From: Eledone cirrhosa
Lineage: Eukaryota
Direction: 5' to 3'
Assembly (NCBI GenBank): GCA_964016885.1
Contig: OZ024742.1
Span: 323,950,001 to 324,014,000 of the forward strand
DNA length: 64,000 bases
How positions within the stretch are numbered: position 1 is the stretch's first letter; every line of letters begins with the position of its first letter. Position numbers and translations under genes: made by a program. This document shows positions 13,919-53,706 of the stretch, piece by piece. A model generated the notes under the pieces. It saw only the letters and a program-made list of their open reading frames with translations. It made no database searches and was not told the origin of the DNA.

Positions 13919-14015
13919 ATTTATAAAACAAATTTTGTATTTTATCTGATGAGAGCGTACCAAAATGTTGGTACCCTTGAAATATATATAATAAAATAAA
14001 TATGGTTTTATAAAT
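13919..14015 (+). ncRNA. Type I hammerhead ribozyme (Penelope-like)
   Basis: Stem I TATTTTAT(13938-45)/ATAAAATA(13991-98), extended by ATTTATAAAAC/GTTTTATAAAT. CTGATGA 13946-52, 11-position stem II with one C-C mismatch, GAAA 13979-82, stem III ATATATAT, AUA cleavage triplet. Confidence 0.8.
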
Positions 14016-15834
14016 ATGGTTTCCATTTATTAATATCAATTATATATATATATATATATATATATATATATATATATATATATATATATATATATAATTA
14101 TCAACAACTCATCTCGGACGTTAAACCAACATTAAACCAACATTAAACCAACATTAAACCAACAAACAAGAGAAGTACTTGTAAATAAAGGTTTTATCAT
14201 AGCTGTGTAGTAAAGACATTAACTTTGCAACCAAGTGGTTTGGGGTTTGTTCTCACTGTGCAGCAGCCTGAGTAAGTGCCTTCTACTATAGCCTTGAGCT
14301 GACAAATGCCTTGTGAGTAAAATTGGTAAATGGAAACTAAGGATTTGTATATATGTGTGTGTGTGGCTAACCTCAGCTTTAGAAGGGACAATGGCCTTAA
14401 AACACTTGTGTTTTTGTGTGTCACCATGCATCTTCATATTGATATAGCTTAAATGCAATTCGTGACATTTGTTTATGTTATGCATAAACAATACATCTCA
14501 CAGCTTCAGGTCAATAACAATCAGAAGTATATATACCATACTTGAAAATATGGTTTAGCATCAAGAAGGGCATCCAAGTTAGAAAAGCTGCTTAAAAAAC
14601 TCTCACCTGATCAATGCCGGCATGGAAAAAGTGAATGTAAAAACAACAATCATGAATGATAATGATTAATAATAATCTATTAAAGTTACTTGGGGCATAA
14701 TATTGTAGCTGTTACAAGATTTTAAATTATGACCATGAGGGCAGTATGTTAATATATCTTAATTTCATTGCTAACTTCTAAGTGATTATAGGAGCAGTAA
14801 TAGTGGTTATAAATGGATGTTTGGTTCAGCTGAGATATTTAAAGAAAGAAAATTGAAGTGAGTATTAAATGTTCTAAAGAAATTGATTTAGAAGTGAAGT
14901 TTATATCAATAGAGTAAAGAACAGTCAGAAAATATTGGTGAGGTGAGATTGGGAGACTTGTATTACATAGAATCAGGGCCTTTATGGCATGTTCAGGAAC
15001 CAGACAACCATGAATATTTTTGCTCCCAAAAAGAAAAAAAGAGAAAAAAAAAACCTCTTGGATATTTGCTAATTTTAAGGGGTATTTTCCTCTCAAGACC
15101 CCAAAAGCAGTTTGTTCCACTTGGAAGCCCTGAAGACAGTAGGGCAGACTGAAGCAGGCAGACAGTTAAGGCCTTAAAAAAGCTAAAATATTTGATGGCA
15201 GAAAATTAGAAAGCAAGGTGACACACTTTGTTCTCTTTCACAACAAGAAAGATGAATATATTTTCTGTATGTGTGTGTGTTTTATTATTGCTTAGTCAGA
15301 GAAGAAAGGTCAGTGCCAGTGACCTTTACTAAGGTCTCAAGGACTGGTAGGAGGGAAAGAGCAAGAAAGGTGTCTTCAAACAAGAGATTTGATCTGAATG
15401 CTTGCAAGAGAGTGAACTCTGCTAAAGGCACTCAGTAGCAAGGTGGCAGTGTTAAAATAAGTGATGGCTCAAATTTACCATCCAAGTAGACTCCTTTCAG
15501 ATTTGAACTCAGAACATTGGAACAAATATTGCAATGCACCTGTCTTAGATACTTGTTCAAAGTACTATGCAAAGTGGAAGACAACACTATGTGTTTACAA
15601 AGTGACCTTCATGCATGTGCTTAGGATTTCTTAAAACCAGGAAAAAACTAGACAGTATCCACACAAATTGATATATTTGAGTTGAATATGTATTAAAGTG
15701 AAAGCAGAATTCATCTAATTAGCTCTCAAGGTAAAAAGGAAATTGCAGGTGATTTATATGACATTTGCATATGAGAAATGGTATCTATATACAGTAAAAA
15801 TAATGCATATGTGTATGTTTGTAATGCTACACCA

Positions 15835-16745
15835 TCTCACACAACACCACAAACAGGCAGAGTAGCATTAACCATATGTTAGTAATACATACTACACACA
15901 GTAGTAGTACAACCCACATATTAGTAATATATACACACACAGAGTTGTAATACCTCCCACATACAGTAGTAATACAACCCACATGCTAGCAACACTCACA
16001 CACACATATATATTAACTACATCACCCAGATATGTGTATACGTATAATCAATACCCACAAACAGTGAACACCACCCACACATGTTATTGATGTTATAGCC
16101 CTGATCACTAGCAGAACAAACCCAGTTATTGGCCAACATACACCCTACAGAAATACCAGCAGACTTACACATAAACAGACACATACACACATCAGACAGA
16201 AACACCGGCTGCACACGGCCAGACGTCAGCAACAGACACATGACATCACACAGAAACATTAGCAGCACATGCATGCATGTACACACACACACACACATAC
16301 ATACATACATACAGTGACATCAACAATATAGGCACTCGCACGCATGCAGATGTCAGCAACACAGGCATTCACACATACAAACAGCAACACCCACACAGAC
16401 ACTCACGCACACACACATACATACAGCAGCACACACAGAAAGATATATCAGAGATATACGTCAGCACACACATACACCCAGATGTCACAGAGAAACAACA
16501 GTGCACACATATACACACACACATACATGCAATACGGACGTCAGACGAAAACACGTCAGCAGCACACACCCAGATGTCAGCAAAGCACACCCAGACACCA
16601 CACAGAAATGTTAGCAGCACATGTTTGCATGGTCATACACACAGGTGTCAATAACACACACATACACAGAACCCAGCAATAGAGGGCATAGATGTCACCA
16701 GTACACATTAAGATGCCAGCCAACACATACACATTCACTCAGGAT
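15835..16745. repeat. Degenerate CA-rich minisatellite (cagatgtcagca..cacaca units)
   Basis: Recurrent cagaYgtcagca motif with CA runs. Confidence 0.8.
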
Positions 16746-16888
16746 ATGCTACTCATAGAAGCTGTGTATAAAACATAACTAGGTTTGTATATAAAGAATT
16801 TGTCGTAGATTAATATGTGAAATTAACAAATGAGTCCGAGTAATTAAACAAGCATTTTAAGGCCATTTCTACCATCTAAAGCAGGTTT

Positions 16889-16970
16889 TAACCCTGTGGA
16901 CTTCATGAGAAAGGGTCCTTTTAAGGTAACCCTGTGGACTTCATGAGAAAGGGTCCTTTTAAGGTAACCC
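16889..16970. repeat. Perfect 38-bp tandem duplication
   Basis: taaccctgtggacttcatgagaaagggtccttttaagg occurs twice. Confidence 0.95.
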
Positions 16971-52100: not shown

Positions 52101-53088
52101 CACATACGACATACACTATACACACACACACTACATTACACATACATACACTACACACATGCACATTATACACTATATACAAAACCATTATCAATGATAT
52201 CCAAGTGTTGAAGTAAAATAGCTCAGCTAATGGTCTACCCAAGATTATCTGTTGTGTGAGTGTGTGTAAATGAAAGAAAGAAAAAAAAACAAAAAAACAC
52301 CCAAAACACAACACTCAATTGAATATCACCATTTAATCAAAAGTTGTTGCAATGTATGATATTATGATATCTTGAGATTCTGGCAAAAGAAAGAATGAAC
52401 AATGTTTGTTTATATTTTCATACTATTTATGTATGTTTGTATTATTGTTGTTATTATTGTTGTTGTTGTCATCATTGATTATGAAAAATTCTTTCTGCTA
52501 GGATGATAAATTCATTGCCAGAACAAGGATATGATTATTGCATTTAATATCACACCCGTACTTGACTCTTGTCATCGTCATCATATTCCCATACACATCA
52601 TCATCACCACATTCTGCATCACCACCATCCTCATCATTATCCCCCATCACAATCACTGCAATCACAATCACCATCATCATCCCCCATCACAATCACAATC
52701 ACCATCATCATCATCATTATCATTATCATAATCACCATCATAGTTGAATTGGCAGTCATTAGAGCGTTGGGTAGAATATTGTGTGAGATTTGTTTCCGAC
52801 CATTTGCACTTTGAGTTTGAATCCTGTTGAAGCCAGAAAGCTTGAACAAATACTGATACATTTACTCCAACACTCTAGCGATCATTTGAACTTGTAAAAC
52901 CACTAAATTACAGGACAAACGGTAATGTAAACAGACATGCACACACAGCTGATGGAAATTTCTTTTTCCATCATTAAGGGTCTTCCCCTTATTTTATAAG
53001 CTATTTTATAGCAAGAGCAAACCACTCTTTATATTAATTTTATCCCCTCAGCGTTTTGTAAAAGTTCGAGAGATCTGCTACGTATATA

Positions 53089-53239
53089 TATATAAAATGT
53101 TTAATATAGGAATGGCTTCTACAGGACTAGAACTGTTTCATTCAAAGGAAATCATCAGGAAAGTCTTTCCTGATGATTTCCTTCGAATGAAACAGTTCTA
53201 GACCTATAGAAGCTATTTCTATATTAAATATTGTATATA
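53089..53239. repeat. ~150-bp palindrome carrying two back-to-back hammerhead-like motifs (Penelope pLTR-type)
   Basis: Arms centred on 53164. The minus copy reads TTTC CTGATGA TTTC-CTTT-GAAT GAA ACAG-TTCTAGTC-CTGT A GAAG. The plus copy has a stem III mismatch. A partial copy lies at about 1204-1235. Confidence 0.7.
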
Positions 53240-53651
53240 CTCTACTATGTATTGAGTACTTTAGTTACAGTGGCTACCCCCAATTGAATCCGACACACAC
53301 ACACACACATATATTATTAGCACAGATTAAAGTTTAAGCAAATAATTTTTGCTTTCACCCTATTGCAATCCTTATCGAGCCCTCTTTGGATTTAGGTGTT
53401 CGTAATTATTATTACTATATATATATATATATATAATAATAATAATTATAGACTTTTGAATGAGGAATGTTCTAACAACTGACCAATGAGAGGAGAAGAG
53501 GCCCTTTGACACTGAAATTCATTTGTTTGAATTCATGTGATTCCAGTTCCTCAGTGAAATAACAACCCAACCAGGAACTGGGCGTATCAGAGTATTGACA
53601 AAATTATACACCTCAACAACATATGTACTTGTCTATACCACACTAATTCGG

Positions 53652-53706
53652 ACTGCCTGAAGAGGTCACAGCCAAAGATGGCTGTCACCGAAATATATAT
53701 AGCAGT
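53652..53706 (+). ncRNA. Type I hammerhead ribozyme with intact core
   Basis: ACTGC CTGAAGA GGTCACAGCCA-aaga-TGGCTGTCACC GAAA TATATAT A GCAGT. Perfect 5-bp stem I, G10.1-C11.1 pair, palindromic stem III. Confidence 0.85.

Follow-up and report, generated by a model that had tools for sequence, protein, structure and literature searches.

Type I hammerhead ribozymes are a recognised feature of Penelope-like elements (PLEs); they are poor cutters in vitro, and one of them, the Poseidon hammerhead, cleaves only with its protein (PMC11167929). A model in which such hammerheads act as dimers has been published (PMC4209133 and PMC3088659). The metazoan minimal PLE hammerheads catalogued by Cervera and de la Pena in 2014 (PMC4209133) are located in pseudo-long terminal repeats (pseudo-LTRs), combine a long helix II with a palindromic helix III, are proposed to cleave as dimers and occur in many solo and opposite-strand copies, all of which is shared by the families of five motifs in a 64,000-nt stretch of the Eledone cirrhosa genome (assembly GCA_964016885.1, contig OZ024742.1, forward-strand positions 323,950,001 to 324,014,000; hereafter the window). 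With the hammerheads of Hydra-clade PLEs tabulated by Craig et al. in 2021 (PMC8557442, File S2) these motifs share the carrier clade, as judged from protein motifs and (TA)n targets, the type I topology at the 3′ end, a short self-complementary stem III and, in some families, a first pair that is U-U or otherwise weak. We propose, with a probability of roughly 0.55, that they are the 3′-terminal hammerheads of a single Hydra-clade sub-lineage, predicted to cut as dimers, in which one stem II cytosine, C10.4, is kept unpaired, likely as a base-specific contact.

Positions within the ribozyme follow the standard hammerhead numbering scheme. The initial annotation had drawn attention to type I hammerheads at four loci of the window, each with a long stem II in which cytosine faces cytosine at position 4, and all five motifs were recovered where it had placed them, counting as four insertions. 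Their CUGANGA sequences start at 13946, 20098, 38526 and 53657 on the forward strand and at 36915 on the reverse strand (36909-36915), the three basal stem II pairs read GAG/CUU, GAU/AUU, GGA/UCU (twice) and GGU/ACC as described there, and all five have the C-C opposition at position 4. Each motif has the full type I core (C3 U4 G5 A6 N7 G8 A9, G12 A13 A14, A15.1-U16.1 and H17) and 4-7 pairs in stem I; its stem II starts with three basal pairs, followed by the C-C mismatch and a distal hairpin, and in each the predicted cut site is preceded by AUAURUAU, an 8-nt palindrome once A15.1 is included. The first motif (13939..13997, +) has its core at 13946-13952, stem II at 13953-13978 with C10.4 at 13956 opposite C11.4 at 13975, the palindrome at 13982-13989 and a predicted cut after 13990. 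The second (20093..20172, +; core 20098-20104; C10.4 20108; C11.4 20153; predicted cut after 20168) belongs to a long-stem-II family and is decayed, stem II pair 5 being C-U. The motifs at 36858..36922 (-; core 36915-36909; C10.4 36905; C11.4 36880; predicted cut after 36865) and 38519..38583 (+; core 38526-38532; C10.4 38536; C11.4 38561; predicted cut after 38576) sit in the two arms of one inverted insertion, arms of 544 bp that are 96.5% identical, and the last lies at 53652..53706 (+; core 53657-53663; C10.4 53667; C11.4 53686; predicted cut after 53701).

The motif pattern matched five times in the window and not once in each of 200 dinucleotide shuffles. A covariance model built from 22 family representatives, among which was the 20098 copy, returned the same five at E values of 1e-11 to 3e-18 and nothing else in the window below E 0.38. 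Rfam, whose hammerhead alignments the initial annotation had named as a place where the feature might already be visible, reported no hammerhead family at E ≤ 1 for the window and none at E ≤ 10 in two short sub-windows; Rfam-based surveys would therefore overlook these motifs.

To place the window motifs in their genomic context, a pattern was used in which position 4 was free, the stem II region was 14-40 nt and stem III was AUAURUAU, the reversed pattern serving as control. It matched 81,525 times in the genome against 179 for the control, and 72,049 of these matches (88.4%) are C-C. The remainder comprise C-A (3,153), C-U (1,503), C-G (395), G-C (612), neither base C (515) and, by subtraction, about 3,300 with A-C or U-C. 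Among the latter as many as about 1,000 are matches placed in the wrong register, on a further CUGANGA within loop II, and they inflate the non-C-C fraction by the same amount. Position 4 is Watson-Crick paired in 1,007 of the 81,525, or about 1%, in agreement with the initial annotation's expectation that it would not usually be paired genome-wide. Among the matches listed (100 of each kind), the Watson-Crick and C-U variants of this set are scattered over all families, like sporadic mutations, and C-A is the fixed state in at least three families. Longer stems gave 5,321 further matches (control 185), overlapping with the first count at 38-40 nt, and an ACGU stem III centre gave 1,447. Sister families of the AUGNNCAU type, which surfaced through the covariance model, account for 31,335 matches (control 67), 22,872 of them C-U and 6,974 C-C, and the GCGC stem III has 215 variants paired at position 4. 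In total there are more than 115,000 motifs in the genome, approximately one per 26 kb, all of these totals being exact-pattern counts rather than curated loci. The ‘fixed C-C’ of the initial annotation must accordingly be restated: C10.4 faces another C in the majority of families, but several have A as the partner and one, with around 23,000 copies, has U; G is never the fixed partner. What is invariant is the 5′ cytosine together with its unpaired state, not the C-C opposition itself.

Because single copies decay after insertion, the question of selection was put across families rather than copies, using the 22 representatives, which were picked by us from the majority type of each family, short-stem and late-found families being left out and the C-U and AUGAUCAU families lying outside the alignment, the tree and the duplex energies. 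Positions 10.4 and 11.4 are unpaired in all 22 (18 C-C, 4 C-A), and C10.4 is the only invariant column beyond the core and stem III. The neighbouring stem II pairs 2, 3, 5, 6 and 7 are paired in 22, 22, 20, 21 and 20 of the 22, with many two-sided changes. Taken as a three-stem hammerhead with an open-ended stem I, 88% of cells are paired and 12 of 17 pairs show a two-sided change, as against 25-50% pairing in slid controls, a figure that is not a probability, the sequences being related. Those families with a linked protein are 45-66% identical in it and form one branch (support 85/81, rising to 94/91 when the shortest fragment is removed), which excludes the youngest Hydra-clade family of this genome; the tree took 16 of 120 listed homologues, all of which fall outside the mismatch branch, and homologues are at most 45% identical. 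The protein of the C-U family is 48% identical to that of a C-C family and 40% to that of the youngest family. Selection on the mismatch, as the initial annotation had supposed, is likely, since the flanking pairs covary across families, sharing ancestry as they do, whose proteins are only 45-66% identical. As far as the alignments and tree can tell, the mismatch is an inherited trait of the sub-lineage that was kept while its neighbours turned over.

What has been kept could be simply a break in the helix. In a long stem II, any interruption beyond pair 3 might suffice, letting the long stem lie beside stem I, or slowing the ribozyme so that it spares its own mRNA, and C10.4 would then persist as few single changes preserve the break. 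By computation, pairing position 4 would add 6-7 kcal/mol to stem II; the three basal pairs are weak, often starting with U-U or G-U; the helix of a short-stem family likewise stops after three pairs; and a mid-stem bulge is reported in the long helices II of chrysovirus hammerheads (PMC13725137) and of D. virilis Penelope (PMC4209133). We nonetheless hold this explanation to be rather doubtful, for A-C, U-C, U-U and A-A would also break the helix, yet none is fixed in any sampled long-stem family, and the partner base did change, to A and to U. Weakening of the helix alone would seem insufficient because the identity of C10.4 is retained while its partner changes, and we infer that the cytosine has a base-specific role in which its pairing edge is free.

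The initial annotation offered a different role, in which the mismatch docks on the internal loop of stem I, as in the tertiary contact of canonical hammerheads. The canonical loop II contacts begin at this same position, the canonical helix II being 4 bp (PMC4209133), the 3′ strand is A-rich, so that sequence-tolerant A-minor contacts would be possible, and U1.7, a contact residue known from PMC11875169, is present in 15 of the 22 families. As a candidate contact U1.7 was rejected, however, being no better conserved than its neighbours A1.8 (16) and A1.10 (18), and it is Watson-Crick paired in 6 of 13 clusters. There is no invariant position in stem I, whose length and internal loops vary between families, and the A-rich strand is accounted for by the poly(A) signal in 20 of 22. 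No conserved loop, no partner base and no consistent alternative or pseudoknot pairing for the two cytosines was found in the 22 families, and docking on stem I now appears quite unlikely.

It is more improbable still that the cytosine is retained for a reason at the DNA level, such as a promoter or an endonuclease site in the pseudo-LTR, or as an inherited trait under no selection. The motif of a tandem copy does precede the start codon by about 190 bp, which places it in a probable promoter region, and all families may share one ancestor, but the neighbours on both sides vary freely while remaining complementary, the two sides of the mismatch are 12-45 nt apart depending on the family, and C10.4 is kept even within CpG.

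The second element of the proposal, dimer cleavage, rests on stem III. The initial annotation was right to see type I PLE hammerheads with a palindromic stem III, but the UAURUAU by which it defined them is too narrow, as five or more palindromes are in use: stem III is an 8-nt palindrome with several versions (AUAUAUAU, AUAUGUAU, AUACGUAU, AUGCGCAU and AUGAUCAU), whose centres are AUAU, AUGU, ACGU, GCGC and GAUC and, more rarely, GUAC and GUGC. Among the 22 representatives the central two bases are UA in 9, UG in 8 and CG in 5, the CG families having been sought by pattern. Where an 8-nt stem III begins otherwise than with AU, the mismatch showed no excess (158 matches against 164 in the control). 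The central bases are unpairable in a monomer hairpin, yet they remain complementary across families, non-palindromic centres being scattered variants apart from one GUUC subfamily. Computed energies are +4.7 kcal/mol for the two-pair monomer hairpin, -2.2 to -6.5 for the palindromic duplexes and 0 for non-palindromic centres; the monomer stem III is thus unstable and its sequence palindromic, as in dimer-type hammerheads. Same-strand tandems, also a mark of this type, occur in the genome with motifs 3,724 bp (locus L348) and 1,298 bp (L384) apart, none being present in the window. Both the stem III changes and the modelled energies fit dimer cleavage, and the complementary change in loop III bases that a monomer could not pair constitutes comparative evidence for dimer pairing.

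The carrier of these motifs was identified through reverse transcriptase (RT) and GIY-YIG frames located 1.1-1.9 kb upstream, which encode a Penelope-type RT with a C-terminal endonuclease. Read by eye, they display DKT, a CxCx5C linker, CxxC and CxH and no CCHH, and the elements target (TA)n, which corresponds to the description of Hydra-clade PLEs in section 11 of PMC8557442; a Pfam search gave no match. The RWK position reads RWR, RWC or RWT in the mismatch families and RWK in one related family. The habits of the clade, namely (TA)n insertion, 5′ truncation and partial tandem and inverted copies, are also seen, and by its protein motifs and targets the carrier is assigned to the Hydra-clade PLEs. 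A full element is present at L348, where the stop-free frame spans 749 aa, both pseudo-LTRs contain a motif and the upstream predicted cut site is around 190 bp before the ATG, and at L458 an 821-aa frame is followed by a C-U motif some 1.07 kb downstream. One long-stem family instead consists of a tandem unit of 1,298 bp with one hammerhead per unit (L384:1410-2707; L366-L390), whose longest stop-free frame is 108 aa and within which there is no match to a Hydra protein; on these features it is classed as a large, non-coding, retrozyme-like derivative. A frame at L149 was dropped as carrier of the 53657-type motif, the motif there being a separate insertion.

The window itself contains only the ends of such elements. 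A 5′-truncated 3′ end of around 170 bp, followed by (TA)n, lies at 13890..14058 (+) and shares about 90% identity with copies for which an RT/endonuclease frame is linked (L349, L261, L262); the truncated 3′ end at 20019..20239 (+) comes from an element related, at 73-76% identity, to the non-coding tandem family with the 1.3-kb unit; the head-to-head insertion of 1.8 kb at 36811..38632 has a hammerhead at each outer end and consists of 3′ untranslated sequence only; and a 5′-truncated end of approximately 310 bp, again followed by (TA)n, occupies 53447..53757 (+). These copies are short truncated relics, and selection would have acted on the source elements, not on them. In several related families (6 of the 22 representatives; window 13908-13917 and 38499-38508; also L031, L348 and others) the core is preceded, at a distance of 35-45 nt, by the sequence GGTAYGTC, which could be a splice donor or promoter element.

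In 20 of 22 families the predicted cut is followed, no more than 35 nt downstream, by a poly(A) signal (in the window at 20180-20185 and 53707-53712, both AATAAA), and cleavage would therefore part the transcript from its signal. In the predicted sequence of events, two motifs in a tandem transcript, spaced by 3.7 kb in the full element or 1.3 kb in the non-coding derivative, would exchange stem III strands and then cleave, releasing a unit-length RNA that ends just upstream of the poly(A) signal. The free pairing edge of C10.4 is probably read by an invariant partner, most plausibly the RT/endonuclease protein of the element or conserved nucleotides of the dimer core. That the cut RNA might prime on (TA)n through its UA-rich end was considered and rejected, as only 144 of the 72,049 C-C copies abut a TA repeat at the cut site and the TA run begins 40-69 nt beyond the cut in 118 of 196 measured copies. 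A bolder extension, which we think unlikely, would see here an undescribed hammerhead subtype. One unpaired stem II cytosine, read by the element's own protein or the partner core, would stand in for the peripheral loop-loop contact, with cleavage obligatorily switched by protein or dimer, the palindromes acting as family-specific pairing codes and the more than 115,000 copies allowing compatible pairs to cut long host transcripts.

Several observations weigh against the proposal that C10.4 is a base-specific contact in dimer-cutting hammerheads. No contact partner for it was found among the 22 families, which share ancestry, hence are not independent tests, and were chosen by us from majority types. 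The most distant linked family joins the branch at only 85/81, through an 86-residue fragment, and most families, including the long-stem and AUGAUCAU types, are without a linked protein. Position 10.4 is A in an older short-stem family that shares stem III with the mismatch families (about 15 of the 100 matches listed), one subfamily repeatedly has a GUUC centre, which is not palindromic, and hammerhead cleavage was dispensable for Poseidon insertion in vitro (PMC11167929). Finally, the youngest Hydra-clade family is abundant without the mismatch, and since it thrives in this way the mismatch is not needed for Hydra elements generally. This family has 832-aa frames, dozens with identical scores, in a tandem and inverted array with a 4.2-kb period (L133-L142), and its hammerhead-like motif (L135, -, about 1.45 kb after the stop of frame 3317-5815) has C instead of U4; its stem II is perfect over 8 pairs, and its palindrome is ACAGCUGU.

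Other hammerhead-like sequences were encountered among related elements. The older short-stem family, at L047, L085-L087 and L412, has a three-pair stem II. Two families (L082-L084, L070, L094, L102) have cores that end in GAAA and pass directly into (TA)n without a 3′ stem I, and the short motif at L082-L084, with C-G at position 4, was for this structure excluded from the family count. Another Hydra-like family, L352-L365, is around 40% identical to the others, no hammerhead of its own being found within the flanks covered. Motifs of other families at L364:5870 (-) and L365:792 (+) lack the C mismatch at position 4, their palindromes being ACUAAUUAGU and ACUAGU. In the window, a near-perfect inverted repeat at 53131-53197 has CUGAUGA ... 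GAAAC on both strands (53170 +, 53158 -) and is possibly a minimal hammerhead of another Penelope family, with no stem I seen. Elsewhere the window contains a 350-aa stop-free frame at 29281-30333 (+) that by eye resembles the C-terminal part of an RTE-type long interspersed nuclear element (LINE) reverse transcriptase, a (CA)n microsatellite of around 800 bp at 24800-25650, and many other dispersed repeats resembling short interspersed nuclear elements (SINEs).

The genome offers a natural mutational series for PLE hammerheads, with C10.4 as one precise, testable nucleotide beyond the catalytic core and with intact or near-intact source elements for reconstitution in L458 (821-aa frame) and L348 (749-aa frame). 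A metagenome search, in which animals are scarce, found no related loci: of 73 pattern matches, none had paired stems or lay near a Penelope protein. The full-text literature searched, outside which most subscription papers fall, holds no conserved C mismatch in a hammerhead stem II and none of these motifs in a cephalopod, and a string search of the supplements of PMC3088659 gave 0 matches. Provisionally, the conserved unpaired C10.4 is apparently undescribed, while the motifs remain a variant of a known ribozyme within a known element class.

Set beside the described systems, the differences lie chiefly in stem II. In the 26 Hydra rows tabulated in File S2 of Craig et al., which include one octopus element, stem II has 3-7 uninterrupted pairs with no internal mismatch, and each stem III starts with AC and none with AU; here three pairs are followed by a C-H mismatch and four or more further pairs, in a stem of up to 52 nt in total. 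The consensus in PMC4209133 has an extra unpaired base before G10.1-C11.1 that is absent from the present motifs, and of the 56 examples listed in its supplement one, S. purpuratus 1, sets C against A at pair 4. The paper does not comment on this and describes no mismatch as conserved. Chrysovirus (PMC13725137) and D. virilis Penelope hammerheads share a long helix II interrupted mid-way, but there the interruption is a bulged single base, whereas here it is a 1x1 mismatch with an invariant C; in the chrysovirus ribozymes, moreover, helix III is long and cleavage takes place in the monomer. Nor do these motifs have the 6-bp helix I, 4-bp helix II and conserved loop I/II contact bases of the canonical tertiary-stabilised form. 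The non-LTR retrozymes (PMC7229834; bioRxiv 10.64898/2026.07.22.740005) share tandem non-coding units with one hammerhead each, comparable with the 1,298-bp family, and in one family of the axolotl a U-U mismatch occupies the basal position of helix II. Retrozyme units are mostly 150-400 bp, with a 4-bp helix II and conserved loop-loop contacts, whereas the present units exceed that size, the majority of copies represent truncated ends of autonomous elements and no loop-loop motif is conserved. In abundance the two are alike, the copy number in E. cirrhosa being near that of the axolotl, for which 126,247 motifs are given, in a genome about a ninth the size.

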